The notes under the pieces: model-generated
Seen by the model: the letters and a program-made list of their open reading frames with translations, nothing else
Database searches by the model: none
Told to the model about the DNA's origin: nothing
Assembly (NCBI GenBank): GCA_022791255.1
Contig: JAAVYR010000016.1
Span: 64,497 to 128,496 of the forward strand
From: Peptococcaceae bacterium
GTDB taxonomy: Bacteria > Bacillota > Dehalobacteriia > UBA4068 > JAAVYR01
Reading direction: 5' to 3'
DNA: 64,000 nt
Shown: positions 9,981-60,254 of the stretch, one piece after another
Position numbering within the stretch: position 1 is the stretch's first letter
Layout: the number at the start of each line of letters is the position of its first letter
Translations under genes and position numbers: made by a program

Positions 9981-10232
9981 AGAGAGATCCTTTCCTTTTT
10001 ACAGCTATTCACTACAACGCAAATACTTTGGGAATGTTTCTCTTTCTTCTTTTACAAAAAGAACAAGCAAAGCCAGCCCAAAGTATTTGTGTTCTACCTA
10101 TTATAATTGATAGTACCATTTTTCCAAATTTTTAGCAAATGATAACACTTTGATAACATTGTGATTGTAGATTTTTAAATTTAATCCCGTCATAATAAAG
10201 TGAGACTATTTATAAGGAGGTAATTTTTCCCC

Positions 10233-31215: not shown

Positions 31216-32565
31216 ATGACCGAACCGAAAAACAGACCAGATAATTCTTGTAAATATTGGAATGAGACACTGGAAACCATGCCCCATGCAGAACTGGAAA
31301 AACTCCAACTGGAACGACTCAAAGAAATGGTGGCTTTCGCCTATGAAAATGCCCCCTACTACAAACGGTCCTTTGATGCAGCAGGTGTAAAGCCAGAAGA
31401 TATCCAGAGTCTGGCAGACCTAGCCAAATTCCCTTTTATCGATAAGAAAACCCAGCGGGATACCCAAGGAGTCGGCTCCTTCCTGGGCGAACTATGCGCC
31501 GTACCGGAAGAAGATGTAGTCTTTATCTCCACCTCTAGTGGTTCCACAGGTGTTCCCACCATGAGCCCCTTCACCAAACAAGATTTTGACGAATTCCAAG
31601 ATACAGAAAGCCGCTGGTTTTGGCAAATCGGTATGCGCCCCAACGACCGTTATGTTCATGCCCTAAACTTCTCCCTCTATGTAGGCGGACCGGATGTTAT
31701 CGGCGCCCAAAACCTTGGTGCACTCTGCATCTGGGGCGGCACTCTTCCCAGCGAACGATTGCTTTTTGTGCTCAAGACATACCAACCTACCATCATCTGG
31801 ACCAGTCCTTCCTATGCTTGGTATTTAGGAGAAACCGCTAAGAAAAACGGCATCGACCCTAAGAAAGATTTAGCCATCCGCAAAATTATCGTAGCAGGAG
31901 AAGCAGGCGGCTCCATCCCTGCCACGCGCAAAGCCATCGAAGACCTCTGGGGAGCAGAGCTCTATGACTTCTATGGATTATCCGATATTTTCGGCGCTTG
32001 CGCTGCTATGTGCGAAGCCAAAGACGGTCTCCACATTGCCGAAGACCAAATCTTAGTAGAAACCGTTGATATTAACACTGGCGAAGTGCTGCCGGCTGGC
32101 TCTGTAGGAGAATTAGTTTACACCACTTTACGGAAACATGCCCGCCCGATGATACGGTTCCGCACCGGCGATATTGGCTGGATAGATAACACCCCTTGCA
32201 GCTGCGGCCGCACCCATGGCCGCATTCACATCCAAGGCCGCAAAGACGATATGTTCATTGTCTCTGCTGTAAATGTATTCCCTAGCGACATTGAAGCAGT
32301 ACTCCGAGGCCTTAAAGGCATTACCGGGGAATACTTGGTTCGCATCTTTGAAAAAGACCTTACCTGCAAATATGCAGTAGAAATCGAAAAAACCAGTGAC
32401 AACACGGAAACTGATGATGAAGTCGCAAAACGGGTTTCTGCAGCACTAAAAGGCAGAATAGGCGTAAAACCATATACCGTCACCGTTCATCCCGACGGCG
32501 GCCTGGACACCCGCTCCGAACATAAGGCAAAACGGGTTATCGACGAGCGAACCACTCGTGTATGA
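31216..32565 (+). CDS. phenylacetate-CoA ligase family protein (PaaK / F390-synthetase-like adenylate-forming enzyme)
   Basis: N-terminal LERLKEMVAFAYENAPYYKR, AMP-binding SSGSTGVPT and a C-terminal PaaK-type domain. Co-transcribed with porGDAB. Confidence 0.8.
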   Translation: MTEPKNRPDNSCKYWNETLETMPHAELEKLQLERLKEMVAFAYENAPYYKRSFDAAGVKPEDIQSLADLAKFPFIDKKTQRDTQGVGSFLGELCAVPEEDVVFISTSSGSTGVPTMSPFTKQDFDEFQDTESRWFWQIGMRPNDRYVHALNFSLYVGGPDVIGAQNLGALCIWGGTLPSERLLFVLKTYQPTIIWTSPSYAWYLGETAKKNGIDPKKDLAIRKIIVAGEAGGSIPATRKAIEDLWGAELYDFYGLSDIFGACAAMCEAKDGLHIAEDQILVETVDINTGEVLPAGSVGELVYTTLRKHARPMIRFRTGDIGWIDNTPCSCGRTHGRIHIQGRKDDMFIVSAVNVFPSDIEAVLRGLKGITGEYLVRIFEKDLTCKYAVEIEKTSDNTETDDEVAKRVSAALKGRIGVKPYTVTVHPDGGLDTRSEHKAKRVIDERTTRV

Positions 32566-32576
32566 TGAAAATAATA

Positions 32577-32612
32577 TAAAAAAGAGACTGCAATTTTTTG
32601 CAGTCTCTTTTT
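32577..32612 (+). terminator. rho-independent terminator of the por/paaK operon
   Basis: AAAAAGAGACTGCAA-tttttt-GCAGTCTCTTTTTTATT. Confidence 0.55.
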
Positions 32613-32674
32613 TATTGGTATGCTTTTATAAAAAAACATCCATACAGAACCATCTGTATGGATGCAAGAATGCT

Positions 32675-32750
<76 letters not shown>

Positions 32751-32753
32751 ATA

Positions 32754-32838
<85 letters not shown>

Positions 32839-32860
32839 ATATAAAATAAGTTTTAAGAAT

Positions 32861-32936
32861 TGGAGCCGAAGATGGGACTCGAACCCGCAACCTGCTGATT
32901 ACAAATCAGCTGCTCTGCCAATTGAGCTACTTCGGC
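32861..32936 (-). tRNA. tRNA-Thr (anticodon TGT)
   Basis: GCCGAAGTAGCTCAATTGGCAGAGCAGCTGATTTGTAATCAGCAGGTTGCGGGTTCGAGTCCCATCTTCGGCTCCA. Confidence 0.85.
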
Positions 32937-33049
32937 TTACTTCAGAACAAAAGTTATTATATCAGTCTTTTCCCTATTTGTCAACGGAATATCTGAGAAA
33001 CATAAAATTTTTCCCGCCTAAATCATAAAATACCCGGCAGCCATCATCC

Positions 33050-33706
33050 TTATACACGGCTTTCCAGGTATTTTTCCAGTTTCCGTTTGACGCGCTGCAG
33101 CGCATTGTCGATAGATTTCACATGACGGTCCAAGTCTTGCGCGATTTCCTGATAAGACTTGCCCTCGAGATAATACATAAGTACCTTCCACTCCAGAGAG
33201 CTTAAAATTTCCCCCATTTTATTTTCGATATCTTCAAACTCTTCTCGGCTAATCATTAATTCTTCAGGGTCGGTAATCTTCCCACCAGCAATGATATCCA
33301 TCAGCGTTCGGTCAGAGTCCTCATCATAGATAGGCTTGTTTAAGGACACATAAGAGTTTAAGGGAATATGCTTTTGTCTTGTCGCAGTCTTAATGGCAGT
33401 AATAATCTGCCGCGTAATACAAAGCTCCGCAAAGGCACGAAAAGACGCCTTCTTATCTCCGCGAAAATCACGGATAGCTTTATAAAGACCAATCATCCCT
33501 TCTTGGATAATATCCTCACGGTCTGCACCTATCAAAAAATAGGAACGAGCTTTGGCACGAACAAAATTTTTATACTTATGGATGAGATATTCCTGGGCAG
33601 CTAACTGCCCGTCTCTGGCTAAATCCACAATCTGCTCGTCCAACATTAAGTCAAAGGGTTGAGAAATTTCTTTTTGGGTCTGTCCTGCCATGCTTTTTTC
33701 CTCCAT
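33050..33706 (-). CDS. sigH: RNA polymerase sigma-H factor
   Basis: 218 aa, nearly collinear with B. subtilis SigH. Matching blocks include YRNFVRAKARSYFLIGADREDIIQEGMIGLYKAIRDF and RHVKSIDNALQRVKRKLEKYLE. Confidence 0.85.
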   Translation of the reverse strand: MEEKSMAGQTQKEISQPFDLMLDEQIVDLARDGQLAAQEYLIHKYKNFVRAKARSYFLIGADREDIIQEGMIGLYKAIRDFRGDKKASFRAFAELCITRQIITAIKTATRQKHIPLNSYVSLNKPIYDEDSDRTLMDIIAGGKITDPEELMISREEFEDIENKMGEILSSLEWKVLMYYLEGKSYQEIAQDLDRHVKSIDNALQRVKRKLEKYLESRV

Positions 33707-37487: not shown

Positions 37488-38915
37488 TTATTTCAGCGCC
37501 CCGCTCAACCGAGCCAGCACCTTTTCTTTACCCATTAAAGCCATGATTTTATCAATGTCCGGGCCATGGCATTCCCCAGTTACAGCAGCGCGGATAGGCA
37601 TATAGACTGCCGCGCCCTTGTAGCCTGTTTCTTTACACAGCTGTTTGATAGCAGTACGGATATTTTCCGGGGTAAAGTCGTCCATAGCATTCACCTTTTC
37701 CAGCATCACGCCAAGGACAGTAGGCACTTGTTCCCCTGCCATCACTTCCTGCACCTGTTCACTAGGAGCCGGCATTTCCCCGTCAATAAGAGGCATCAGT
37801 TCTTTGATATCTGCAAAACAGCTTAAATGATTGGTCATAGTTTCGGCCAGAAGCAAAAGCCGCTCCTGGTCTCCTTGCCAACCAGCAGAGAGGTGCGGCA
37901 AGATACCTGCTGCGATGTCTTCCACCGGCAGCTTCCGTAAATATTGGCCATTGAGCCAGCGAAGCTTATCCATATCAAAGACTGCCGGACTTTTAGATAC
38001 TCTATCCAGAGAAAATTCCTCTACCAGCTGTTCCAGGCTAAAGATTTCTTCTTCTTTTTCCGGTGCCCAGCCCAGGAGGGCTAGGAAGTTTACCAACGCT
38101 TCCGGTAAGAAGCCTTGTTCTTTATAGTTCACCACAGACACGGAGCCATGGCGTTTACTCATTTTGCTACGGTCTTTGCCTAATATCAAAGAGATATGAG
38201 CAAATTTCGGCGTCGGATAGCCTAACGCCTCATAAAGCAATACTTGTCTTGGTGTATTGGAAAGGTGCTCCTCCCCACGAATAACATGAGAGATTTCCAT
38301 GGTATAGTCGTCTACCACGACAGCAAAGTTGTAAGTAGGGATACCATCTGACTTCATAATGACAAAATCCCCTACCCCATCACTTTCAAAGGTTACATCG
38401 CCACGAACTAAGTCGGGGATTAAGATTTGCTTGCCGGCCGGCACCCGGAAACGGACAACAGGCTTTCTACCTTGGGCTTCCAATGCTTGCCGCTGTTCTG
38501 GCGTCAAATCCCGGCATTTCCCGGAGTAATGAGGGGTCTCCCCTTTTTCCTGTTGGGCAGCTCGTTCTGCTTCGATTTCTTCTTCACTGCAATAGCAATA
38601 ATAAGCTTTTCCTTCGTCGATGAGCTGTTGGGCGATGGCCCGATAAGTTTCCAGCCGTTCCATCTGACGGTAGGGCGCATAAGGGCCGCCAATGTCAATC
38701 CCTTCGTTCCAGGTAATGCCCAACCAACGCAAAGAGTCCTTAATATTTTCTTCCGACTCTGGTGTAGAACGGTCTCTATCCGTATCTTCGATGCGCACGA
38801 TAAAATCGCCGCCGTTTTTCTTTGCTAGCAAATAGTTAAATAACGCAGACCGCGCGCCGCCAATATGTAACGGCCCGGTAGGACTGGGTGCAAACCGTAC
38901 CCGTAATTTTGTCAT
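37488..38915 (-). CDS. gltX: glutamate--tRNA ligase
   Basis: Start at MTKLRVRFAPSPTGPLHIGGARSALFNYL (HIGH region). KMSKR motif. 475 aa. Confidence 0.9.
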   Translation of the reverse strand: MTKLRVRFAPSPTGPLHIGGARSALFNYLLAKKNGGDFIVRIEDTDRDRSTPESEENIKDSLRWLGITWNEGIDIGGPYAPYRQMERLETYRAIAQQLIDEGKAYYCYCSEEEIEAERAAQQEKGETPHYSGKCRDLTPEQRQALEAQGRKPVVRFRVPAGKQILIPDLVRGDVTFESDGVGDFVIMKSDGIPTYNFAVVVDDYTMEISHVIRGEEHLSNTPRQVLLYEALGYPTPKFAHISLILGKDRSKMSKRHGSVSVVNYKEQGFLPEALVNFLALLGWAPEKEEEIFSLEQLVEEFSLDRVSKSPAVFDMDKLRWLNGQYLRKLPVEDIAAGILPHLSAGWQGDQERLLLLAETMTNHLSCFADIKELMPLIDGEMPAPSEQVQEVMAGEQVPTVLGVMLEKVNAMDDFTPENIRTAIKQLCKETGYKGAAVYMPIRAAVTGECHGPDIDKIMALMGKEKVLARLSGALK

Positions 38916-39201
38916 TTCACAATCCCCTCTCACTCTACATAAACTATAACAAAATAAACAAAACCATCATTTGTTTTTGGTTTGTTTTTGAGGTGTTTTT
39001 GGTCGTCTCTATGACCATATCGCCACCGTTATCAGCTGGATAGCAATCTGGTATCGATAATGGTATCAATAATGGATATATACTAGTTTATTCTACCACG
39101 GTTTTTATAAAAATCCTAGTGTTTCCCTGGTAAAGTTTTTACTTTTTCTTGAAACAAAAAATAGTTTCCGCCTAATACTTCTCACAGCGAAAGGAGAACC
39201 C

Positions 39202-39951
39202 ATGCTGGAAAGCCATCTTTTTACCGGTCTGGAATACTTTACCACCCATTCTCCTGGTGAAATCCTCTGGACCATCCTCACCGTGACCATGATTGATTTA
39301 GTTTTAAGCGGTGATAATGCTGCCGTCATCGCGCTGGCTGTCAGAGGATTGCCTGCCCATATCAAGAGAAAAGCTACCACCTACGGCATTACCATCGCTA
39401 TTATCCTACAAGTAGCCTTCACGCTGATGGCCACTTGGCTGATGACCATTCCATATCTGACTGCTATTGGCGGATTATCGCTGCTCTTTATCACCTGGAA
39501 ACTGCTGACTGACCACGACTATGAAGAGGAACTAGCCCCACCACCAGATAAAGAAGAACGAACCTTTCCCGAGGCGCTGCTCTTTATCATTCTGGCTAAT
39601 CTTTCCATGTCCTTTGATAATGTGTTAGGGGTGGCAGGCGCTGCAGGCGGCAACTACTCTCTGGTTTTTTGTAGTCTGCTTTTATCCATCCCCCTACTGA
39701 TTTTAGGTGCTGGCTGGATTGGAAAGCTCATGGAACTATTCCCGCCTGTTATCTTCATAGGCGGCGGCATCCTTGCCCACACAGCCATCAGCATGATTTT
39801 CATGGATAGCGCCCTAAACCTCGCTGAGAAAATCGCCCCTTTTAGCGGTAGCCTCTTAGGCTGGATCGTCGGGCTTTCCATTATGATATATGGTTGCACG
39901 AAAAAAGCCCTACCCCGCAAAAAAGAAAACAAGACCCGAAACCAAACCTAA
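39202..39951 (+). CDS. TerC/YjbE family integral membrane protein
   Basis: Repeated SxDNxxV motifs (LSGDNAAVIALAV, SFDNVLGVAGAAGG) typical of the TerC family. Seven predicted transmembrane helices. Confidence 0.75.
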   Translation: MLESHLFTGLEYFTTHSPGEILWTILTVTMIDLVLSGDNAAVIALAVRGLPAHIKRKATTYGITIAIILQVAFTLMATWLMTIPYLTAIGGLSLLFITWKLLTDHDYEEELAPPPDKEERTFPEALLFIILANLSMSFDNVLGVAGAAGGNYSLVFCSLLLSIPLLILGAGWIGKLMELFPPVIFIGGGILAHTAISMIFMDSALNLAEKIAPFSGSLLGWIVGLSIMIYGCTKKALPRKKENKTRNQT

Positions 39952-45242: not shown

Positions 45243-45503
45243 GCCGCCCTCCTAAAAAATATTGCAATATTCCTTTATTTTTTTATTGTACCATGAACCC
45301 TAGGGAACCTCAAATAAAATCTTCCGGTTTCCCTTCTGGTTATCGCACGGATTAGCCAGTTTTTCATATAATAATGATAAACAGGAAACTTTCAAAAATA
45401 GTCTGTCTATTTTTCATAGGCTTTCGCTCCACATCGTACCACCGTGTCCATAAGGCAGGGGCTCCAGCCCCCCGAAACAAACACAAAACAGGAGGTACCG
45501 TTT

Positions 45504-46529
45504 ATGGATTATCCATTTTTTACCAACGGCTATACCGCAGTAAATGGCTGCAGCACTAACACAAGTAATGTGGCAAACAATAACAACACATTAACTACCT
45601 GCAGCAGCTGCAATAATAACCGTACCGTTGTGACCAATACGAGAACCGCAAATGGTCAAATCGTATTGCCCACTGGTTGCTTTTGTCCACCAAGCAGATG
45701 CAACCGGGTACTGGCTTCTCCTTGCTGCCAAGGAATGACACCAGATACCAGAGGCTGCACCAGCAGCCAAGTTTATACCTATGCAAATATCGTATTTGAC
45801 GCCAAGGAAGTAGAGGGAGACCAAATCAAAGAAAAAATCTGTGTTCCCTCTGACGAATGTAATTTCACTGCCATTTATAATGGCTGCAATGGTTGCTGTG
45901 ACGGCTGCCCGCAAATTGACGAACATTCCTGCTTCAAGGTAGTCAGCTACTGCATTCGGGTAAAACATGCCCGCCCCAGATGTCTCCTCACTGGAGCAGA
46001 CTTCACTATCAATAACTATCCGGCAAACGACGCTGATGTAGAACACTTAGGTTTTGATACCTATCGTATTCCCTTAAGCGGCTTCACACCGGATATTTAT
46101 GAAGCCACTTGCACCTGCGATAACTTAGGTACCAAAGCTTCCCTCATTGTATCTCCCAATGGCTTCCCTGTGGAATACATGATGGAATATGCTTTATGCG
46201 GCTATGTCACCACCAGCTGTGGTACTTATTGCTTCGAAATTACCTTTGAAGACGCCTGCCCTATGGTGACCAATGGTCTGACCTCTTTCTTCGTCAAAGA
46301 CCTCTGTCTGCCAATCCCACGCTGCCACCAAATCCCAGAACTGAAAACCAGCTTCTGCTTTGACGCAAGTCTCGTAGCACCTGAAATCCATGCTACTTGC
46401 TGCAACCACTTAGTATTGACAGATACCTTAGTCATCACTCCAAAAGTATTGGCAGAAACGACTGTCAACAAACGGGTCGTAGCCACTGTTTGTCAATTCC
46501 CTGACAACGAAATCTACTGCTGCAAATAA
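45504..46529 (+). CDS. cysteine-rich protein of unknown function (341 aa, 32 Cys, no signal peptide)
   Basis: Strong AGGAGG ribosome-binding site 9 nt upstream of the ATG at 45504. Asn/Thr-rich N-terminus followed by many CC, CxC and CxxC pairs. No hydrophobic leader. Confidence 0.5.
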   Translation: MDYPFFTNGYTAVNGCSTNTSNVANNNNTLTTCSSCNNNRTVVTNTRTANGQIVLPTGCFCPPSRCNRVLASPCCQGMTPDTRGCTSSQVYTYANIVFDAKEVEGDQIKEKICVPSDECNFTAIYNGCNGCCDGCPQIDEHSCFKVVSYCIRVKHARPRCLLTGADFTINNYPANDADVEHLGFDTYRIPLSGFTPDIYEATCTCDNLGTKASLIVSPNGFPVEYMMEYALCGYVTTSCGTYCFEITFEDACPMVTNGLTSFFVKDLCLPIPRCHQIPELKTSFCFDASLVAPEIHATCCNHLVLTDTLVITPKVLAETTVNKRVVATVCQFPDNEIYCCK

Positions 46530-46605: not shown

Positions 46606-46652
46606 CAGAAAACCCGGCTATTGTCAGTTTTTACAATAGCCGGGTTTTTATA
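46606..46652. terminator. bidirectional terminator
   Basis: AAAACCCGGCTATTGT-cagtttttac-AATAGCCGGGTTTTT perfect 15-bp stem. Confidence 0.55.
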
Positions 46653-46674
46653 CGGATAATACGGAACAGCGACA

Positions 46675-48105
46675 TTATTGGCAACGAGCATAAAACTCAT
46701 CATAAGTCCAATTGTTCACATAGCAGGTATAAGCGATTTGCTTCCCTACATAGCGCAAATGCCACCATTCAGCAGGATAACCAGTCACTGCCTCCTTTTC
46801 CTTTGGGTAACGAATGATAAAGCCATATTCATGGGCATGGTCCCGCAACCAAAGAGCCTCTTTACACTGAGAAAGATTTTCATCTAATCGATTAGCACTG
46901 TTTACCACATCCATGGCCAGTCCTGTCTGGTGCTCACTGGTACCAGGTTTGGCACGATAGGGATTAGAACCATTACCATACAAGCCCTTTTGGGTCTGAT
47001 AGCTGCGATAACCAGAACGAACAAATATCTCGATACCATCTGCTTTCGCACCGCTAAACAGCGTTTTCAGTTGTTCATAAGCAAAAGGTTCCATGAGCCC
47101 TTGCTGGGTTTTAGCCGGCAGCGTCTGCTGGGTAATCAGGGTAGGCTGATAGGTCTCCGGAAGGGTATGGGTTTTATTCACCAGTACCCAGAGACTGGTC
47201 GGTGTATCCATTTGTTTTTTCATATAAGCTTTATTTTTTGCGGTTAACGGAAATAAACTATTATCTGCTTTGAGCCGTTCCAGAAAATATTTTTCATAAC
47301 GATAGCTATCATTTTGTAGGATTGGTAAATCAGCCAGGATGGCTTCCTTCTCTGCAATGGTACCTATCTGCACCAGACGGTCGCCCCAGCAAACGCTGGT
47401 CACATAGCCTGTTTCCAGGTTTAACGTTACTTCCTTCAAACACAAGAAATGATAAGAAATATCTGCCAATAACAAACGATTTAAGGGCAAAAGACGATAT
47501 TTCTGCAAATCAGAAAGAGGCATGTCCTTGCCTTGGGCAGCAAGCGCAGAAGAAAGCAGGGTAATATATTCCTGGGTGGTCAAAGGCGCAAGCGGGTCCA
47601 TATCCTGCGTTATCATACCATGGTTCATGGCATAGGCGATAAAAGGTCTCCCCCAGGCCGGCACAGCATCAGACACCTGTCCTGGGTTCACTGCTTGTCC
47701 ACGAGCAGCTTGTTCCTGACCAGTCAACCGCAGCGCTAGGATAATCCCTTCCATGCGGTTAGGCGCGCCAGATAAATAAGCAGCATCATATACGCCATGT
47801 TTCTTAGGCCATTGGATAAAAGAGAAGTGCTCTAAGGCAATGACATTGGCTAAAGACTCTCTGCCAGCAGGCAAGTCATCCAACACCAAAACAGCAGTGT
47901 TCCCCTGGGCAACTGTCACCTCTCCATTTTCATCTACGGCATAAACAGGTTTGTCCCCTTTTGGAAAAAAGCAAATAAGACCTAAGCACAGAAAAGCCGC
48001 TGCCCCTGCACCAATCATTTTATTACGGCCGGCAGGCGTCTGCCAAAGGGTACGCAACTGCTGGCAGCTATATTTTAATTTTTCTTTTACTTCTTCTAAT
48101 TTCAT
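46675..48105 (-). CDS. membrane-anchored D-alanyl-D-alanine carboxypeptidase, peptidase M15B (VanY-like)
   Basis: N-terminal transmembrane segment. C-terminal M15 motifs: SGYRSYQTQ, GTSEHQTGLAMDV (HxxxxxxD zinc site) and EYGFIIRYP...EWWHLRYVG. Confidence 0.7.
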   Translation of the reverse strand: MKLEEVKEKLKYSCQQLRTLWQTPAGRNKMIGAGAAAFLCLGLICFFPKGDKPVYAVDENGEVTVAQGNTAVLVLDDLPAGRESLANVIALEHFSFIQWPKKHGVYDAAYLSGAPNRMEGIILALRLTGQEQAARGQAVNPGQVSDAVPAWGRPFIAYAMNHGMITQDMDPLAPLTTQEYITLLSSALAAQGKDMPLSDLQKYRLLPLNRLLLADISYHFLCLKEVTLNLETGYVTSVCWGDRLVQIGTIAEKEAILADLPILQNDSYRYEKYFLERLKADNSLFPLTAKNKAYMKKQMDTPTSLWVLVNKTHTLPETYQPTLITQQTLPAKTQQGLMEPFAYEQLKTLFSGAKADGIEIFVRSGYRSYQTQKGLYGNGSNPYRAKPGTSEHQTGLAMDVVNSANRLDENLSQCKEALWLRDHAHEYGFIIRYPKEKEAVTGYPAEWWHLRYVGKQIAYTCYVNNWTYDEFYARCQ

Positions 48106-51251: not shown

Positions 51252-54200
51252 TTATTTCCAGGTTTCTTTGTTCCCATCTTTGGTGTAATCATGTTCGTTT
51301 GCAGCTTCGATTACATCAAAGTATGCCCAGTGGTTAGTAGCCACATCTGGGAAGGTTTTGTATTGAGCGCCAGCGATGCTAGCAGCGTCAATTTCCCGTT
51401 CAAGCATGTTGTTTACGATGCTTACTACTTCAGCTCTGCTGATGTTTTGGTTTGGACGGAAGGTACCATCTGGGTAACCGCCGATCCAGCCTTTAGCATA
51501 TGCAGAGTTGATGCTGTTGATAGCCCAGTGGCTAGCAGCTACATCAGTAAATGCATTCTTGTCGGTGTTTTCCAGTTTGTCGAAGCGGGAAGCCATAGCA
51601 GCAAATTCAGCTCTGGTAATTGCAGCATCTGGACGGAAAGTACCGTCTTCATAACCATTGATGATGTTGTAATCTTCCATGTAGCCGATGTAGTTTGCAT
51701 ACCAAGCGCCTGCTTTTACATCACTGAAGCTGGAGTTGTAGCTAGCTTCTACATCCATTTTTTCATTCATCAAGCGAGCGAAGATAGTGATAGCTTCTGC
51801 TCTGGTGATGGATTTATTTGGAGCGAAGGTGCCGTCTTCATAACCACGAACATAAGCGATATGGTCGTCTTTGTTCAGGTCAGCAGTTTTGTTGCTTTCA
51901 AAGATAGCAGTAAAGGTAGTATCTTCTTTAATTCTTACATCAGAAGGATCTACGATTGTCTTGCCATCTAAGGACCAACCTTTGAATTCGTAACCATCTT
52001 TAGCAGTTACTTTAGGCGCTTTGGTAGGATATGCGTTAGCTTTTACGCTTTCGCTGTCGCTGCCAGAGATAGTGCCGCCTTTGCCTACTTTGTAGGTTAC
52101 ATCATAGTATTTGCCGCCGCTGGAGCTAGAACCGCCACCGATAGAACCGGTAGAGGATTTCTTAGGTGTGCCGGTAGCTGTACCAGCGTCACTTGTACCA
52201 GCGTTGTTAGTTGCAGTTACTTCTACAGTGTATTGGTCGCCATTGGTCAGGCCAGTAACTACCTTTTCTAAAGGTTGATCTGCAGTTACATCTGCAGCAG
52301 TGCCTACAACATCACCGTTTTTATCTTTTACGGTTACGGTGTATTTGGTGATTTCAGCACCGTTTTCAGCAGGTTTCGTCCAAGTGATAGTCAATTTTTC
52401 GTTGCCTGCTTTTACAGTTACGACTGGAGCGTCTGGTTTTTGAGCTGGGATATTGGTTACATTAGAACCAATAGTACCGCTATAAGTGCCATCTTCTTTT
52501 GCAGTAGCTTTTACAGTGATATTTTTGCCGATATCATCTTTTGTGATAGTATATTCGATACCGGTTTCACCAGCAATAGCATCGTCACCACGATACCATT
52601 GTAATGTTACATCATTCATAGTAACACCAGCAGGTCCCATGGTTCCTTCAGCAGCTGTTAATTTTTCACCAACAGTGGTGTTACCAGTTACTGCTAATTG
52701 ACCAGTCAATACTGCTTTACCTGGAGTAATTGCTGCGCTGGTCTTGCTACCAGTGTAGTTACCATCTGCTTTAGCAGTGATTTTTACGGTGATAGCTTTA
52801 TTCATATCATCAGCAGTTACAGTGTAAGTAGTACCAGTTGCACCAGCAATATTAGCACCTGCGCGTAACCATTGGATATCTACATCAGCTGCAGCTGCAT
52901 TTACACCAGTAAAGTTTGCAGTGAGAGTTTCCCCAATAGATGCAGCGCCGTCACCATTAGCATCAGTCAAGTCAATGGTAGGAGCATTGTTGATAGCCAA
53001 TTTGCCAATAGTCCAGTCAATGGTCAAGCCTTCTTTTGCAGCATAGTTAGCACCAGCATCTACTTTGAAGGTTACTACATAAGTACCAGCATTAGTAGCA
53101 GTGGTAGCAACAGCACCAGCTGCACCATTCTTAGGCTGTACATTGGTTACAGTGATAGTACCCATACCGTTAACACCATCTTTTGCAGCAACAACAGGTG
53201 TTTGAGCAGCTTTGTTATAAATAACATCTGTTACTTTGAAATTGCCGTTTTGAGGTTCGGTTAATGGTTTTGGAGCGCCAACAGTAATATTAGCTGCAGC
53301 ACTAGCCTTGTAGTTGTCGTTTTCTTTTACCCGTACCCAATATTTAGTACCAGCATTAGTACCATTTACAGTGATTTTACCATCAGCACCAGCAGCAACT
53401 ACAGTAGCATCAGTAAAGGTTGTACCATTAGTGCTGATTTCATAGGTTCTGGTATTATCATAGTTTTTAATGGTAATAACACCATCGTTACCTGCGATAG
53501 TAGCATCTTGTTTTTCCAAGTTAGGAGTATCAGTATCAGCTTTTGCTACCGTTACAGATAAGTTCTGATCGATGGTTTGACCAGATTTTGCAGATGTAAA
53601 GGTTACTTTACCAGTGTAAGTCTTAGCGTCTACCTTAGTAGCTTTCAAGGTAACCTTTACAGTAGCGGTTTTAGCGCCAGTGTTAGGTACAGTTACAGTC
53701 ATTTTTTCTAAGTCAAAGTTACCTGCACCTGTAGCATCTAAGCTAACTGCAACATCATCCAATTCATCTGTACCAATGTTGGTCAGAGTGAATGTTGTTT
53801 CAGCAGTTAATGCAGAACCTGTGTATTTCAGGTTGGTTGGGAAAGCAGCAGTATTTGCTACTTTAAATGCAAACTGAACTGGAACTTTACCATCTACCAA
53901 AGTAACAGTTGCGGTTTTAGCATCATCTGGCCCTTCACTAGTAGCATATATCCATGCAAGCAACTGATCGGTAGGTCCAAATCCTGTTACGGGAACAATC
54001 TTACTTGTTGCACCATTCATAAGATTTTCATCGTTATTAACATTAATTAAAACGCTACTAGATGGTGCACCATTCCCTACATTTGCTGTAATATCAGCAA
54101 CACCACCATAGGGATAAGTCTCACCATTTTCGTTATCGTACCAATCCATAAAGGCTTTGGTAATAACAGTTGTGTAAATACCTTCACCGCCGTCAGCACC

Positions 54201-54425
54201 AATTTTAATGCCAACACCAGTCATTTTTGCGGTATCGGTTTCTTCGGCCCCAGATGCATTAATGTTTACAAACTGCACACTATGGCTTGCTGCAAAAGCA
54301 GATATTGGTGTAATTGTAAACAGCATGGATGCACAGAGAACAGAAGCTACTACTTTTTTCAAAGATAGTTTACCCACTTCTTTAATCTCTCCTTTCAATA
54401 TTAAAATAAAGACATACGTTTGCAA
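51252..54425 (-). CDS. S-layer-homology (SLH) domain surface protein, 1057 aa, multi-domain
   Basis: N-terminal signal peptide (…LFTITPISAFA/ASH). Thr/Ala/Gly/Val-rich beta-sandwich repeats, an FN3 domain (PDAPVVTVKAGNEKLTITWTKP...YTVEVTATN) and a Listeria-Bacteroides-type repeat (YDVTYKVGKGGTISG...GYEFKGW). Three C-terminal SLH domains (FSDV..WYANYI, FTDVAASHWA, FPDVATNHWA). Confidence 0.8.
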   Translation of the reverse strand: MQTYVFILILKGEIKEVGKLSLKKVVASVLCASMLFTITPISAFAASHSVQFVNINASGAEETDTAKMTGVGIKIGADGGEGIYTTVITKAFMDWYDNENGETYPYGGVADITANVGNGAPSSSVLINVNNDENLMNGATSKIVPVTGFGPTDQLLAWIYATSEGPDDAKTATVTLVDGKVPVQFAFKVANTAAFPTNLKYTGSALTAETTFTLTNIGTDELDDVAVSLDATGAGNFDLEKMTVTVPNTGAKTATVKVTLKATKVDAKTYTGKVTFTSAKSGQTIDQNLSVTVAKADTDTPNLEKQDATIAGNDGVITIKNYDNTRTYEISTNGTTFTDATVVAAGADGKITVNGTNAGTKYWVRVKENDNYKASAAANITVGAPKPLTEPQNGNFKVTDVIYNKAAQTPVVAAKDGVNGMGTITVTNVQPKNGAAGAVATTATNAGTYVVTFKVDAGANYAAKEGLTIDWTIGKLAINNAPTIDLTDANGDGAASIGETLTANFTGVNAAAADVDIQWLRAGANIAGATGTTYTVTADDMNKAITVKITAKADGNYTGSKTSAAITPGKAVLTGQLAVTGNTTVGEKLTAAEGTMGPAGVTMNDVTLQWYRGDDAIAGETGIEYTITKDDIGKNITVKATAKEDGTYSGTIGSNVTNIPAQKPDAPVVTVKAGNEKLTITWTKPAENGAEITKYTVTVKDKNGDVVGTAADVTADQPLEKVVTGLTNGDQYTVEVTATNNAGTSDAGTATGTPKKSSTGSIGGGSSSSGGKYYDVTYKVGKGGTISGSDSESVKANAYPTKAPKVTAKDGYEFKGWSLDGKTIVDPSDVRIKEDTTFTAIFESNKTADLNKDDHIAYVRGYEDGTFAPNKSITRAEAITIFARLMNEKMDVEASYNSSFSDVKAGAWYANYIGYMEDYNIINGYEDGTFRPDAAITRAEFAAMASRFDKLENTDKNAFTDVAASHWAINSINSAYAKGWIGGYPDGTFRPNQNISRAEVVSIVNNMLEREIDAASIAGAQYKTFPDVATNHWAYFDVIEAANEHDYTKDGNKETWK

Positions 54426-54446
54426 CCGAATTTTTTAAAATCACCA

Positions 54447-56552
54447 CTATTCACCAGGTGCAAAAATAGAACCTGCCGTGGTACCCAATGCGTCTGTAAT
54501 TTCCCGTTTGGTTAAGTCTCGTTCTCCACCATCGCTATTTTTTGCTGACCAAGCATTGAGGATAGCATTTCTAATAGCAGCAGCGTTACCAGCACCGGTA
54601 ACACTAATGCCCACTGCACGTAATTGGCTATTATTAATTTGATCCATTGTATTATCTCGACAACAATCATTAATCCAACCTAAATAACATTCATATAAAT
54701 AGGTCTTATCTGCACGAGATAGAACAGCACGATTAGAACCATCAAATTGAACAGTCTGTGTTGTTCCCTTATCATAAGTAGATGTGGATACCCCTACACG
54801 AGAACCGCAAGAAACCCAGTTACTCATGCCATAAGTATCAACAACTTCCCAAATAACACGGTCAATCCCTGCGGTTGTTGTCGCATATGGTAAGAGCTCA
54901 ATCACTTCTTTATCCGCACCGGATAAATCATATAAACTATATAGAGTGTTAGAACCGGAAATCATTCTCACACGGAGCGCCGGTTTGGCCGGGCGAGGGA
55001 TAATCTTACCCTCTGCATTTTTCCGAGTTACTTCTACTTTGATATAGTTTACACCGGCCGTAGTATAGCGACCGTAATCTACTGGAGTTACCGTGTATTG
55101 TCTTCCTGGTTCACCCATAGCTTCCCACTCAGCAATGTAGGCTTCATCTGCCACAAAAGCAGCCTTGAGCACCATATCCCCTTGGACGTCCGTAAAATCA
55201 GCTTTATCAGCCGGCTCACCTAGCTGACGGGACGCATCCGGTTCGGTCTCACTATCCACTGCCATATTATTGGCATTACTAGATGAAACTCTTGCACCAT
55301 AAGTGGTAGGTGTTTCACTTTCATACGGGATCCAACAACCAAAGATATATCCTGGATGTGCGTATTCCAGTTGTTTATCTTCTTGGAATTTACTTACGTA
55401 TTGGGTAGCGTCCCCTTTTGGGACGATTACAGATCCCAGCATAGAATTATCCCAATCATAAAATACAATAGCAGCAAAGTCACTCGGGTCAGGAGGCCCG
55501 CCACTACCAGAGTTTACAGAGATACCATTTTTCACTGACAGGAAGTGCCAGTTTAGGATATCCACAGGCTCGGTATCCGTGGTGTAAAAATATGTACCAC
55601 TGCGCCCTGCAGGAGAATTAACCGCAGTGGCATCCTCTGCCACTTTGATACCATATTTCGCCATGAAATCCTCTGCCGTCTCTGCTGGAGGGTCATCAGG
55701 ATTTTCTGGGGTATCTGGGTTATCAGGGTCCGTTGGATCAGTTGGCCCCGGTTCTGTAGGCTCTCCGCCACCTTCTCCCGTACCACCGCCACCTTCACTA
55801 CCATCTCCTGTTTCATCAGCCTGAGTGCTAGGCTCATCTGTTTCATCAGGGTTTGGTGTGGGGTTTTCAGGGTCTGGTTCTTCCGGGTCAGGGGTCGGCT
55901 CTACAGGCGGTTCTTCCGGTGGTTCCGGCGTCTCCGTTGGTAACGCAAAACGCACTGTTACCACTTGGTCCACAGCAGATGTAGCGTCTATCAAGCCATG
56001 ATTAGACTGGAAACCATTACCGGCTGCCAGTTCTTGTAAGCCTTCTAGTCCCATCTCGCTGGGTTGCACCTGATTTAGCCCATATAATGGTGCCGGTGCT
56101 TGCACAGGCACATTGGTAGGGGTAGGTGCTTCCACGCTTAAGTAAAGATATCCCTTATTGGTCGTGCTGTCAATGACAGTAAATGCAGTCTTCCCGCTGA
56201 TAATGTCTTTCCCCTTCGTAGGCAAAGGCACAGCGTGGTCCCACATCGTTTCACCTTCAGCTAGCGCCGTTGGGTCTACTTTAGCCTTATTTAACAGTTC
56301 GTCCGTTACTTCATCTGCCCATCCGCAAGGCTTGAGCGCAGAGGCATCATATTCTAATACCACACCGGTAGATTGGAAGCTATCATTCTTGCTATCTATT
56401 CTTAAGCCCAGTTCTAATGCAGCGCCATTATCCACTCTGGCCGCAACGACCGTTACTTCCGGTGGCACTTGGTTCGCACCCACAACACCCAGGCTAAAGA
56501 AAGCTACCAATAATGCTGCCATGCACATCAATAACATGATTTTCTTTCTCAT
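54447..56552 (-). CDS. secreted surface protein, 701 aa, with an N-terminal cohesin-like module and a Pro/Glu/Thr/Asp-rich linker
   Basis: Signal peptide MRKKIMLLMCMAALLVAFFSLGVVGA. About 170-aa N-terminal domain containing a TGVVLEYDASALKP block. About 90-residue PE/PT/DP-rich linker. C-terminal domain of unknown function. Confidence 0.5.
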   Translation of the reverse strand: MRKKIMLLMCMAALLVAFFSLGVVGANQVPPEVTVVAARVDNGAALELGLRIDSKNDSFQSTGVVLEYDASALKPCGWADEVTDELLNKAKVDPTALAEGETMWDHAVPLPTKGKDIISGKTAFTVIDSTTNKGYLYLSVEAPTPTNVPVQAPAPLYGLNQVQPSEMGLEGLQELAAGNGFQSNHGLIDATSAVDQVVTVRFALPTETPEPPEEPPVEPTPDPEEPDPENPTPNPDETDEPSTQADETGDGSEGGGGTGEGGGEPTEPGPTDPTDPDNPDTPENPDDPPAETAEDFMAKYGIKVAEDATAVNSPAGRSGTYFYTTDTEPVDILNWHFLSVKNGISVNSGSGGPPDPSDFAAIVFYDWDNSMLGSVIVPKGDATQYVSKFQEDKQLEYAHPGYIFGCWIPYESETPTTYGARVSSSNANNMAVDSETEPDASRQLGEPADKADFTDVQGDMVLKAAFVADEAYIAEWEAMGEPGRQYTVTPVDYGRYTTAGVNYIKVEVTRKNAEGKIIPRPAKPALRVRMISGSNTLYSLYDLSGADKEVIELLPYATTTAGIDRVIWEVVDTYGMSNWVSCGSRVGVSTSTYDKGTTQTVQFDGSNRAVLSRADKTYLYECYLGWINDCCRDNTMDQINNSQLRAVGISVTGAGNAAAIRNAILNAWSAKNSDGGERDLTKREITDALGTTAGSIFAPGE

Positions 56553-56597
56553 GTTCCGTTTTCCCTCCTTCGATCCATTATCCTTGCATGGGGCAAA

Positions 56598-58286
56598 TCA
56601 ATTATTCTGCCGCACCACCTCCTTCACCTGATTATAATAATCTTTATGCATTAAGATATTTAAATCTTGCATATCTATTTTACCATCGCCGTCAATATCT
56701 GCACAGTATTTTTCATAGTTATATTTTGCCAATTTTTGTTCGGCGACCGCATTGCCTTCTTCTGCAGGCGGTTCTTTCCGACTATGGTTGATAAAGCCTA
56801 AGAGAACGGTTCTATCGGAAAGCTTGGTCTTATCATCGCCACCGACTTCTGTTTCTTTTTCATTGGTGATATCACCAGGAATTAAGAAGGTATCCGGCAC
56901 GCTGCATTCACCGCTTGCCAGAGAGAGACCTTCATACACAGCAGTGATATGGCCCGGCTTTAAGATTTCTACCTTATAGATCCCAGCTTCCCCCACAGTA
57001 AAGGTTCCTTTTTGTTTATATCTCCAAGTACCCTTACTATTACCGTGAAAAGTCTTTTGGCCAGTGACATCTAGCTCTGTCCAGCTTGTCCCACTGCTAG
57101 CATCATCCCCTGTAGTGGTATCACCAGCGTCATCAGCCAGTCCGCTTTCACCGCCGCCACTTTCACTATCTCCGCCATCTTCACCACCACCAGGTGTTTC
57201 CCCGCCGCCTTCTTCCGTGTCGCCGCCTTGGGGACCTTGCCATACCGGCAACTCTATAAAACCAGTGACATCAGCAGGATAGGTTCCATCTTCGCCTTGA
57301 AGATACCACTTGATGGTAACTGGCTTTTTGGGGTCATAAGAAGTAATCACACCAGCTTCCAGCTCAGAAGCTAAATCACAATCAATATCTGTCTGTACTT
57401 GCAGCTCGATACGATAAGTGCCATCTGCTTCTTTTTCTACTGGACAAATAAATTCATGATAAGGCATACCATTGATGCAGACTTCGCCATCGATTTCCTC
57501 TACCACCAATTTACCTTCAAACTCAGCAGGCAATCGTTTAGCTACCAACTCCGGTAAATCATCAATAGTTACCGGCAAGTCGGCTATATTTACTTCTACA
57601 TTATGACGGAAATACCCTTGGTAGTAACCAACACGGTCAGGCCGAACCTGCATTTCCTCTGCTGTTGCTGTTCGCCAGATACTTTCTGCTACCATCAAAT
57701 CATGGTCAGGAACGGTATTCCCATAGTGAGAATGTTCCTTAATCATGTCCTCAAAATGGAGCAACTGAATATCTGCCAGCGATAAATCAGCAACAGCACT
57801 GCCATCAGTATCCTGCAAAAGGATTTCCAGCAAATGAACACGATGCTCTTCTCCGTTTACAGGAGGTAAAACATTACTACGAGTCCAGCCAAGGGCATAA
57901 TACTCAGCACCAGAGTCCCGGGTACCGCTTAAAACATTTCCTCCCAAACCAATAGCCGCCAGTTCATAATAAGGCTCACTACCACTGGCAATGTGCGGTG
58001 TAATGTTAGCATTACTTCCTGCTGGCAATTGAAAGCCAAAAGAGCCAGAATATAACGGTGCGTCTGCCGGTTCTATTAAATATACATTTAATGTTCTTGC
58101 ACCACCAGTCCCCAGCATTGCAACATTACCCAATGTAACCTCATACCGATAAGGCACAACTGGAACATCAGGAACGACAGGGTCTTCCTCTCCTTCAGAG
58201 GCAGCCCTTACCACCAATGGCGCAGCCAACACAAAAACCATGAAGCAAAGCAATAATAAATATCGCCTTTTTCCAACCCGCTGCAT
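56598..58286 (-). CDS. secreted protein, 562 aa, with a C-terminal dockerin-like Ca-binding repeat
   Basis: Signal peptide (…VVRA/ASEG), Gly/Asp/Glu-rich linker and C-terminal DIDGDGKIDMQDLNILMHKDYY (DxDxDGxxDxxD, an EF-hand/dockerin-type loop). Confidence 0.5.
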   Translation of the reverse strand: MQRVGKRRYLLLLCFMVFVLAAPLVVRAASEGEEDPVVPDVPVVPYRYEVTLGNVAMLGTGGARTLNVYLIEPADAPLYSGSFGFQLPAGSNANITPHIASGSEPYYELAAIGLGGNVLSGTRDSGAEYYALGWTRSNVLPPVNGEEHRVHLLEILLQDTDGSAVADLSLADIQLLHFEDMIKEHSHYGNTVPDHDLMVAESIWRTATAEEMQVRPDRVGYYQGYFRHNVEVNIADLPVTIDDLPELVAKRLPAEFEGKLVVEEIDGEVCINGMPYHEFICPVEKEADGTYRIELQVQTDIDCDLASELEAGVITSYDPKKPVTIKWYLQGEDGTYPADVTGFIELPVWQGPQGGDTEEGGGETPGGGEDGGDSESGGGESGLADDAGDTTTGDDASSGTSWTELDVTGQKTFHGNSKGTWRYKQKGTFTVGEAGIYKVEILKPGHITAVYEGLSLASGECSVPDTFLIPGDITNEKETEVGGDDKTKLSDRTVLLGFINHSRKEPPAEEGNAVAEQKLAKYNYEKYCADIDGDGKIDMQDLNILMHKDYYNQVKEVVRQNN

Positions 58287-58344
58287 AATATTACCTTCTT
58301 TTTACTTTCCAGATTTCAATATAATTCTAACCCGATATCATCAC

Positions 58345-60087
58345 CTAGTTTAACTTATTGTAAATACGATATAAGAATACGGCTGTTTCCGCCCGGGTAG
58401 TGTTTGCTAAAGGATTAAGTTTATGACTTTCATCCCCGGCGATAAAGCCTTCTTCTACCATACGCCCTACACTCTCAATAGCATAATCCGAAATTTGGTT
58501 TTTGTCTACAAATTCCGCAAAAATTGTTTCATCAACAGAAGCCCCTTCTATCTTTTGCAGATAAACAAGAGCGCGGCTGGTTAATACCATCATATCTTGC
58601 CGGCTGATACTAGCTTCCGGTTCAAAGCGGTTATCGCCGCTGCCCTGGGCAATCCCCAGCTGTTTCGCAATGGCAATTTCCTTATAATAATATTTATCCG
58701 GTGTTACATCGGCAAAGTTCCCTTCTGGTTCTCCATTAGGACTTAACATTCTCACTAATAAAACCATAAAGTCCGCCCGGGTAATTCGGTCATTTGGAGA
58801 GAAGGTAGTTGGCGTTGTTCCTTTGATAATGCCCTTTTCCGCTAAAGCCAAAATTGCTTCTCTAGCCCAAGGTACAGAAGTCAAATCACTAAAACTGCTA
58901 CCATTGGTTGCTGTACCATTATTGGCATTGTTTTCGTTATCTTCTTTATCCTGTTTGATGTCACTAATAGCCCCACGGCTTAACACTGTCAATACAAAAT
59001 CTCTGGTAGCAGAAGCCTGATTTTTCTTTACAGTAGCTGTTAGCGTTACTTGCGTTTTAGTAGCCCGAGGAAATACATTCCCGGTGTTACTAATCACTTC
59101 CGAGTCACTGCTAGCCCAAGTGATTTCGGTACTATCTTGGCCAGTAGTAGGCAAGCCTACAATGCTGGTAACAGCATTGGCGCTATCTCCCGGTATGTAA
59201 GAAATGGTCAAATGCTCTGTCACATAGTCCACCAATTGTTGGTCCGTTAACAGCACCACTTCTTCAGTTTTATCTACTTTATCCACGGTTACTTTATCAT
59301 ATTTAGTACCATAACCGTTCAGAGACACCCGATAGGAATAAGTACCATCGGTTAAATATGTTTCTGCTTTGCCATTGCTATCTGCTTCCACTGTCCGATT
59401 GTTTACTAATACGCTAGCAGCCAAAGCCTGTCCCACACCATCTTTGATATCAAAGGTAATGAGGCGCAAGTTTGCTGGTCTTGCATCGTCATTCGGATAG
59501 TCGAAGGTCACATCGCAAAACAGTTCATTATCAAGGTTATAAAAATAATAGGTTAAATCTAATGCACCGATAAACGCGCCGCTCCGCCAATTTACATTGC
59601 CGGCTGCACTCATGTCTAAAAGTCTTAAAGTATCCCAGTCGAGGTCATCGGCAGTTACCCCGTCTGCTAATTGAAATTCTAATTGAACCAACGCTTTTGG
59701 TTCGGTACGGCTATCTAAAGTATTCTCTTGAGAATACCAAGCAAACATAACATAGCCGTCTTCATTGGAAATCAAATCACTTACATCATAGTTATCTTGA
59801 GTAACTACTACCCCAGCCTGTCTTTGAATGGCTCTATTAAAGTCGTTAGCTCGAGATAATTGCATTTTAGTTTCATCAAAATCTAAAGCAAAGCGGCCGA
59901 TGGAACCTTCTACCCCTTCTATAGAAATGGTAGCAATAAAACGGTTGCCAGAGGCGATATTTCCTTCTACTATGTAGCCTACTTGGTCTGCAGCCATTGC
60001 TTGTACGCCACAGCATAAGAAGCACAAGACAGCTACCAGCAGAGTAGCAAACCACTTTTGTTTACCCATCAACCTCTCTCCTTTCAA
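58345..60087 (-). CDS. SLH-anchored surface protein, 580 aa, with an N-terminal cohesin-like module (putative anchoring scaffoldin)
   Basis: Signal peptide (…CCGVQAMA/ADQ). N-terminal beta-rich domain with a GRFALDFDETKMQLS block, an Ig-like middle domain (ITWASSDSEVISNTGNV) and three C-terminal SLH domains (FSDLTSVPWAREAI, FADVTPDKYYYKEI, FAEFVDKNQISDYAI). Confidence 0.65.
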   Translation of the reverse strand: MKGERLMGKQKWFATLLVAVLCFLCCGVQAMAADQVGYIVEGNIASGNRFIATISIEGVEGSIGRFALDFDETKMQLSRANDFNRAIQRQAGVVVTQDNYDVSDLISNEDGYVMFAWYSQENTLDSRTEPKALVQLEFQLADGVTADDLDWDTLRLLDMSAAGNVNWRSGAFIGALDLTYYFYNLDNELFCDVTFDYPNDDARPANLRLITFDIKDGVGQALAASVLVNNRTVEADSNGKAETYLTDGTYSYRVSLNGYGTKYDKVTVDKVDKTEEVVLLTDQQLVDYVTEHLTISYIPGDSANAVTSIVGLPTTGQDSTEITWASSDSEVISNTGNVFPRATKTQVTLTATVKKNQASATRDFVLTVLSRGAISDIKQDKEDNENNANNGTATNGSSFSDLTSVPWAREAILALAEKGIIKGTTPTTFSPNDRITRADFMVLLVRMLSPNGEPEGNFADVTPDKYYYKEIAIAKQLGIAQGSGDNRFEPEASISRQDMMVLTSRALVYLQKIEGASVDETIFAEFVDKNQISDYAIESVGRMVEEGFIAGDESHKLNPLANTTRAETAVFLYRIYNKLN

Positions 60088-60254
60088 TTTCGTAAGTCAT
60101 CAAAATTCGTAACTTGTAAGTTTAAAAACATATAACATATCACTTCCTGGGCAGCCTGAGCAATATCTCAAGCCGCCCGGAAGTCATATGATGAAACTAT
60201 AGTCTAACCAATTTAATCATAGTATACCATAGTTTTTTTTAGATAACCACTGGC

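Follow-up and report, generated by a model that had tools for sequence, protein, structure and literature searches.

Cysteine-rich structural proteins of the spore surface are a known kind, described in both Clostridia and Bacilli. CsxA (UniProt G9F2G0) is the basal-layer protein of the exosporium in Clostridium sporogenes and in C. botulinum of group I; it forms the lattice of the exosporium in C. sporogenes, self-assembles in Escherichia coli (PMC7333573, PMC4942563), and is seen as a self-assembling spore-surface structural protein that is thought to be cross-linked by disulfides (PMC4942563, PMC7333573, bioRxiv 10.64898/2026.09.03.749163). CsxC, CdeC and the CsA and CsB proteins of C. sordellii are cysteine-rich SPOCS/DUF3794 structural proteins of clostridial spore envelopes, and the SPOCS proteins in general (SpoVID, CotE, SipL, CsxA and CsxC) are organisers or building blocks of the spore envelope (bioRxiv 10.64898/2026.09.03.749163). 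The CotY, CotZ and ExsY proteins of the Bacillus crust and exosporium are cytoplasmic, cysteine-rich and made late in the mother cell, and assemble by themselves into disulfide-stabilised arrays; they are about 160 residues long and are described as having a very different fold (bioRxiv 10.64898/2026.09.03.749163). Here we describe a gene at positions 45504-46529 of a 64,000-nucleotide stretch of DNA, referred to below as the window, from an uncultured Peptococcaceae bacterium (assembly GCA_022791255.1, contig JAAVYR010000016.1, positions 64,497 to 128,496). On balance, it is probably transcribed by sigma-K late in the mother cell and encodes a protein of a new family that self-assembles and is cross-linked by disulfides in the spore coat or exosporium.

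Many anaerobes of the gut pass from host to host as spores. The outer-layer proteins of spores, which are known for a few cultured species only, are so divergent that homology searches seldom find them. If the proposed role is correct, the gene supplies an uncultured lineage of mouse-gut Peptococcaceae with a candidate for a major protein of the spore surface, is evidence that this lineage sporulates, and offers a test case for the argument that unrelated proteins converge on ordered arrays that are cross-linked cooperatively by disulfides (bioRxiv 10.64898/2026.09.03.749163). The impact would be moderate, the family being small and rare and the evidence indirect.

The gene and its product

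The coding sequence lies on the plus strand and runs from an ATG at 45504 to a TAA at 46527-46529, the stop codon being included in the coordinates given above. Its 341-residue product contains 32 cysteines (9.4%), 38 threonines and 27 asparagines; cysteine averages 1.2% in the 42 other long open reading frames (ORFs) of the window and reaches 4.2% at most, and relative to these the binomial probability of at least 32 cysteines in 341 residues is 9e-19. The cysteines are arranged as CSSC (residue 33), CFC (59), CC (74), CNGCCDGC (128-135), CTC (203), CC (299) and CC (339). An earlier note on this DNA, written from the letters alone, had reported the length, cysteine content and asparagine- and threonine-rich N-terminus, which a recount reproduces, as well as these motifs, every one of which is found in the translation; its remark that the spacing is not that of a ferredoxin is borne out by the absence of a CxxCxxCxxxC motif from the product. 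It was also right that the protein has no signal peptide or transmembrane helix, since Kyte-Doolittle means over 19 residues reach no more than 1.17 and the protein begins with a hydrophilic stretch, and that the gene has a strong ribosome-binding site and a bidirectional terminator (Table 1).

All orthologs begin with M-[DNA]-Y at the position corresponding to ATG 45504, and the GTG at 45444 that the ORF finder listed is thus not the true start. Comparison with five orthologs of 66-91% amino acid identity gives ratios of non-synonymous to synonymous substitution (dN/dS) of 0.03-0.15, with dS of at least 1.3, and the sequence is a real gene under strong purifying selection. An identical protein is on record at NCBI as HFI72_05590, a hypothetical protein from the metagenome-assembled genome (MAG) of a Peptococcaceae bacterium. 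The gene is monocistronic and has its own terminator, a perfect 17 bp stem (46608-46624 with 46633-46649) of -27.1 kcal/mol (z = -6.0) that none of 200 shuffled sequences matches in folding; the stem is preceded by a run of A and followed by a run of T, so that it can serve both of the convergent genes that it separates.

A rare family of cysteine-rich proteins

Searches of Pfam, NCBIfam, PHROGs and PDB sequences with the protein returned nothing, and a Pfam scan of 20 family members gave no match at E values up to 10, including none to the CotY/CotZ/ExsY family (PF10612). A match to ComEB in the Pfam and NCBIfam scans was discarded at E = 0.039 and 13.9 bits, far under the cut-off of 219. Close relatives are scarce: there are only four others among 5.8 billion clusters, and a genome search with the alignment of close orthologs found only one other species-level genome, the mouse-gut MAG iMGMC-1032 Peptococcaceae.

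When 1.84 billion representatives were searched exhaustively with a hidden Markov model (HMM) profile, 23 matched, of which 16 are cysteine-rich proteins of 278-414 residues with 14-34 cysteines that are 20-40% identical and align over the whole core. The remaining seven are Bacteroidota proteins with HYR_4C (PF23237) repeats, Ig-like surface repeats, each of which is scored weakly by profile region 235-312 (GTYxFxITFxD...FxVxDxCxP); a single repeat gives 2-10 bits and an independent E above 1e4, and since the significance comes from summing 9-16 repeats, these proteins were rejected as homologs. With about 16 related clusters (counted at 50% identity) among the 1.84 billion representatives, the family is rare and undescribed; the protein is a member of a sequence family that fits no described one, in keeping with the suggestion of the earlier note that the family might be novel. 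Twenty family sequences make up the alignment, A3, that was used for the profile-profile tests and the structure prediction below. A word-index homolog search with A3 proved lossy, returning ten proteins and missing some of the input sequences. Ten positions are invariant in A3, C61, C66, C74 and C75 in a linker and C131, C132, C203, G233, F244 and C268 in the core; most of the other cysteines are lineage-specific, and many members have a cysteine-containing C-terminal tail.

A conserved putative sigma-K-type promoter

Sigma-K promoters of C. difficile have a -35 element AC and a -10 element CATATAAT, and sigma-E promoters share this -10 element and have ATA at -35 (Saujet et al.; PMC3789822). 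The sequence AC-N16-CATATAATA at 45347-45373, upstream of the cysteine-rich gene, is an exact match to the sigma-K consensus of C. difficile and B. subtilis (PMC3789822), with a predicted transcription start near 45380 on the plus strand. A -10 element of the sigma-K or sigma-E type, which the earlier note had proposed looking for upstream of 45504, is thus present, and it is both kept in five orthologous loci and found again in two distant lineages.

The 261 bp between the gene and cls, the divergent gene for cardiolipin synthase, are poorly conserved, with a mean column identity of 46% among the orthologous loci. Within this region a footprint of GCAC, a 16-nt spacer of variable sequence, TTCATATAATA and then ATnATAAACAGGAAA is shared by the window (45346-45389) and loci L001, L002, L003 and L014, and has been kept despite saturation of synonymous sites between the orthologs. 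The sigma-K-type site is retained in five of six orthologous loci, and the chance of finding the strict motif in any one ortholog upstream region is 0.015-0.044. Only four sites of the form AC-N16/17-CATAnnnTA occur on the two strands of the window. The sole other one that faces a co-oriented gene, at 38919-38946, lies about 256 nt upstream of a membrane-protein gene (39202-39951) and runs into a gltX-like ORF (37488-38933, minus strand) at the 5' end of the latter.

Similar arrangements are seen beyond the orthologs. Two independent distant homologs, P0007 in L015 and P0008 in L016, have AC-N16-CATAnnnT upstream of the gene, 48-74 nt from its start codon, for which the chance expectation is 0.004 and, in the loose form of the second, 0.05. 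Boxes of the mother-cell -10 type, CATAnnnT, stand 26-37 nt upstream of P0006 (L017), P0013 (L019) and P0022 (L011). The tandem paralogs of L011 also have a common upstream element with an inverted repeat, AGTATATAGATA-N-TATCTAT (8580-8700 and 9900-10000), which was not seen in the Peptococcaceae orthologs.

A minus-strand sigma-70-like promoter for cls, TTGAAA-16-TATTAT (45395-45368), was considered as the cause of the conserved block and rejected, because the orthologs have not kept its -35 element (plus-strand TTTCAA) but have kept the plus-strand GCAC and CATATAATA. The block ATGATAAACAGGAAAC directly after the -10 element is a candidate for a regulator's binding site or, alternatively, for the mRNA 5' end. 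The sequence ATAAACAGGA agrees at nine of ten positions with the B. subtilis SpoIIID box, WWRRACARNY. Further downstream, a motif of the 5' untranslated region (UTR), GGCAggggCTCCAGC, is kept in all five aligned loci (the window, L001, L002, L004 and L014), among them L004, which has no sigma-K box. In an RNAalifold prediction the CUCC of this motif pairs with the GGAG of the Shine-Dalgarno sequence through four pairs that never vary and thus show no covariation; the two could pair, and an anti-Shine-Dalgarno role is neither supported nor refuted. An Rfam search of the 5' UTR and the gene found no family match.

Gene neighbourhoods of distant relatives

The neighbours of the gene in the window are cls, guaA, a VanY-type peptidase gene and ilvB, and the position adjoining cls and guaA is common to the window, L001 and L006. 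As with the monocistronic gene of the window, no co-oriented gene adjoins the cysteine-rich one at L015, at L016 or at the orthologous locus L005.

Several distant members of the family have neighbours of a different kind. P0010 (L018), P0013 (L019) and the tandem paralogs P0022 and P0033 (L011) all lie inside clusters of SPOCS (SipL, PF12673) genes, each cluster with one or two copies of the cysteine-rich family. Paired genes for SPOCS/SipL-type products of about 157 and 161 residues recur in these clusters, and three L019 proteins pass the Pfam gathering score for SipL/SPOCS. There are also a 400-residue DUF11 and SPOCS protein, a DUF11 protein of about 1300 residues, and small cysteine-rich proteins of 79 residues with 13 cysteines, 185 residues with 16 and 150 residues with 20. 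The clusters, which are unannotated and resemble spore-envelope loci, span L018 800-9900, L019 400-12200 and L011 1100-11200 in assemblies of low GC content; that of L011 additionally has genes for a UDP-GlcNAc 2-epimerase and a CMP-sugar synthetase. The P0008 locus (L016) includes a germination gene of the GerA family and the gene for a protease resembling CtpB. Together, the conserved promoter and these neighbourhoods suggest that the protein is a disulfide-cross-linked building block of an outer spore layer in uncultured gut Firmicutes.

Predicted structure

AlphaFold2 prediction with only the five close orthologs was unusable, with a predicted local distance difference test score (pLDDT) of 28, and succeeded only with the 20 sequences of A3, for which the mean pLDDT is 75.8. 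The predicted protein consists of a disordered N-terminal region, a conserved cysteine-rich linker, a long all-beta core and a flexible tail (Table 1). Block means of pLDDT in the core are mostly 86-96; linker residues 67-79 are modelled with low confidence in spite of their conservation. A Foldseek search of the predicted core against the PDB gave no match, and in BFVD no significant fold match was found, the best template modelling (TM) score being 0.15 or less. A search for internal repeats with hhalign, including a three-fold repeat, found none. The sequence family is very rare and undescribed and has no fold match in the PDB, within a kind of protein that is itself familiar.

Comparison with known spore-surface proteins

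CsxA invites the closest comparison. It too is cytoplasmic and cysteine-rich, with CC and CxC clusters (25 cysteines in 299 residues as against 32 in 341), it is beta-rich as is the predicted core of the present protein, and the two families have a similar short motif, P-x-x-G-x-C-P-x-P-x-x-C. The cysteine richness of CsxA and CsxC is comparable to the 9.4% found here (PMC4942563). Proteins of the CsxA family are characterised by a length of about 250-300 residues and by self-assembly into a hexagonal two-dimensional lattice as the exosporium basal layer. There are also differences: the C-terminal tail of CsxA is acidic and its N-terminus is not Asn/Thr-rich, and CsxC matches the Pfam families DUF7852 and SipL/SPOCS where the cysteine-rich family matches neither.

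On sequence evidence, homology was rejected for CsxA, for CsxC and for the neighbouring SPOCS proteins. With CsxA and CsxC sequences taken from the supplement of PMC4942563, hhalign comparison of A3 gave a probability of 0.3% for the CsxA sequence, 0.47% for a CsxA-family profile of 21 sequences (A5) and 0.1% for CsxC; alignments of 12 neighbouring SPOCS proteins gave 0.04% or less. Precomputed Pfam annotation places PF27077 on all 87 CsxA relatives (P0037-P0123) and records it for none of the cysteine-rich family; the local Pfam copy lacks PF27077, and CsxA itself is unmatched there. Neither PF12673 nor PF25250 nor PF27077 was recorded or found on the cysteine-rich family, and in the PF12673 scan CsxC and the L019 neighbour proteins, which served as positive controls, do match. 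By these comparisons, the protein does not belong, as far as sequence goes, to the CsxA family, to SPOCS or to CotY/CotZ.

These results bear on the strongest of the alternatives, that the protein is a divergent member of the SPOCS/DUF3794 superfamily, which is marked by a beta fold and a trimeric tripod, with the fold of CsxA, CsxC, CdeC and CotE. CsxA itself was assigned to SPOCS by Foldseek on AlphaFold3 models and not by sequence (bioRxiv 10.64898/2026.09.03.749163), so that a negative result at the sequence level is compatible with a shared fold; the predicted all-beta architecture with long strands, the SPOCS genes that flank distant members and the motif resembling one in CsxA all point the same way. 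Against it, in addition to the hhalign and Pfam results, are the lack of an internal three-fold repeat and the empty Foldseek search of the PDB. We regard it as unlikely, and note that it would overlap with our preferred interpretation, since the role in the spore envelope would be the same and only the structural class would be a known one.

Proposed role and remaining alternatives

We infer the dependence on sigma-K, the location on the spore, the self-assembly and the disulfide cross-linking from the promoter and neighbourhoods described above, together with the high cysteine content, the CC doublets, the cysteine-bearing tail, the disordered low-complexity N-terminus, the lack of a signal peptide or transmembrane helix, and the monocistronic organisation with its own terminator. 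Sigma-K RNA polymerase would transcribe the gene from AC-N16-CATATAATA in the mother cell late in sporulation. Having no export signal, the product would stay in the mother-cell cytoplasm and be deposited on the surface of the forespore, and its all-beta core (86-331) would self-associate. After loss of the reducing cytoplasm, the linker (58-85), the cysteines of the core surface and the C-terminal -CC would become joined by disulfides within and between molecules, which would lock the layer, and the variable Asn/Thr-rich N-terminus would project from it or act as a region of interaction or modification. The layer concerned could be the coat, the crust or the exosporium, and the rare, undescribed family would have this gene as its first annotated member. 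By analogy, such an assembly would follow the general strategy of CsxA, CsxC, CotY and ExsY. More tentatively, and we consider this doubtful, it could be an independently evolved, disulfide-locked crystalline surface layer with a beta fold unrelated both to SPOCS proteins (CsxA, CsxC and CdeC) and to CotY/ExsY of the Bacilli, forming the outermost shell of spores in the uncultured Peptococcaceae of the gut and in a small number of other spore-forming anaerobes.

A number of observations weigh against a role in the spore. Homology to a characterised spore protein was not detected at the sequence level, and the relatives whose gene contexts are informative are only 21-27% identical. The csxA loci have genes for collagen-like (BclA) proteins and glycosyltransferases, which the neighbours in the window do not include, and no sporulation-specific gene was found in the 64 kb, a Pfam scan of ten unassigned ORFs included. 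The window does contain sigH (33050-33706, minus strand), but this gene is present in non-sporulating Firmicutes too and is not diagnostic of sporulation, and the cultured Peptococcus species are described as non-sporulating. One orthologous locus, L004, lacks the sigma-K motif. The earlier note had been reminded of spore-coat or exosporium cross-linking proteins in a genome carrying sigH; that interpretation gains circumstantial support from the promoter and from the spore-related contexts of distant relatives, but sigH alone is insufficient for it and the window adds no sporulation-specific gene.

Two further points against a role in the spore, the perfect TATAAT at 45367-45372 and the eight invariant cysteines, which could equally be metal ligands, are those on which another explanation is built, one that the earlier note had also allowed for in part as a metal-binding protein, that the protein is a cytoplasmic metal-binding or redox protein (zinc or Fe-S) with no connection to spores, transcribed by sigma-A through the TATAAT contained in CATATAAT and using the eight cysteines as ligands. 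The position of TATAAT within the CATATAAT-type -10 element makes use by sigma-A conceivable. The protein is indeed cytoplasmic and cysteine-rich, its eight cysteines have remained invariant in 20 sequences that are otherwise 20-40% identical, and poor modelling of a linker with four of them is what would be expected if a cofactor were missing. However, no ferredoxin, rubredoxin, metallothionein or zinc-finger family is matched at E values up to 10, and the ferredoxin-type motif is absent. The cysteine count varies from 14 to 34, mostly in a lineage-specific manner, a pattern more in line with cross-linking than with metal sites that are fixed; the -35 element that is conserved is GCAC and not TTGACA-like; and the contexts of the relatives are spore-envelope clusters rather than redox operons. 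We therefore think this explanation improbable, and somewhat more so than SPOCS membership. That the ORF encodes a structural protein of a phage or mobile element, or is non-functional or spurious, is effectively refuted by its conserved chromosomal position (beside cls and guaA at L001 and L006 as in the window) and by the purifying selection on it (dN/dS 0.03-0.15), and is further opposed by the lack of a PHROG match, the low BFVD scores and a gene GC content (45.8%) equal to that of the window (45.2%), even though L011 and L015 have integrase genes within a few kb of the family member.

Other features of the window

The features of the cysteine-rich gene and its flanks are collected in Table 1.

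Table 1. Predicted features in and around the cysteine-rich gene (window coordinates)
Feature	Coordinates	Strand	Description
Putative sigma-K-type promoter	45346-45373	+	-35 cAC at 45346-45348, non-conserved 16-nt spacer, -10 CATATAATA at 45365-45373
Block ATGATAAACAGGAAAC	45374-45389	+	Directly after the -10 element; nearly invariant in five orthologous loci with saturated synonymous sites
5'-UTR motif GGCAggggCTCCAGC	45454-45468	+	GGCA-N4/5-CTCCAGC, ahead of the Shine-Dalgarno sequence by about 25-35 nt
Ribosome-binding site AGGAGG	45490-45495	+	8 nt ahead of the ATG; AGGAGGTA invariant in all orthologs
Residues 1-57	45504-45674	+	Asn/Thr/Ser-rich N-terminal region of variable length, predicted disordered; pLDDT below 50; ortholog indels and low-complexity repeats
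Residues 58-85	45675-45758	+	Conserved cysteine-rich linker with C59, C61, C66, C74, C75 and C85
Residues 86-331	45759-46496	+	All-beta core with 13 predicted strands, some 19-29 residues long; 21 cysteines
Residues 332-341	46497-46526	+	Flexible C-terminal tail ending in -CCK; pLDDT 36-54
Bidirectional intrinsic terminator	46608-46654	.	Used in common with the VanY-type gene (46675-48105, minus) that converges on the cysteine-rich one

Elsewhere in the window, the 156-residue ORF at 32558-33028 is spurious, as it overlies a cluster of tRNA-Met, tRNA-Tyr and tRNA-Thr genes (32675-32936, minus strand) just downstream of sigH. A gene for a sortase-domain protein is located at 1941-2714. The minus strand of 51252-63869 carries a run of five large genes for products of 562-1204 residues, at least four with N-termini resembling signal peptides; the L005 ortholog of the first has fn3 and SLH domains, so that the run probably encodes S-layer or cell-surface proteins.
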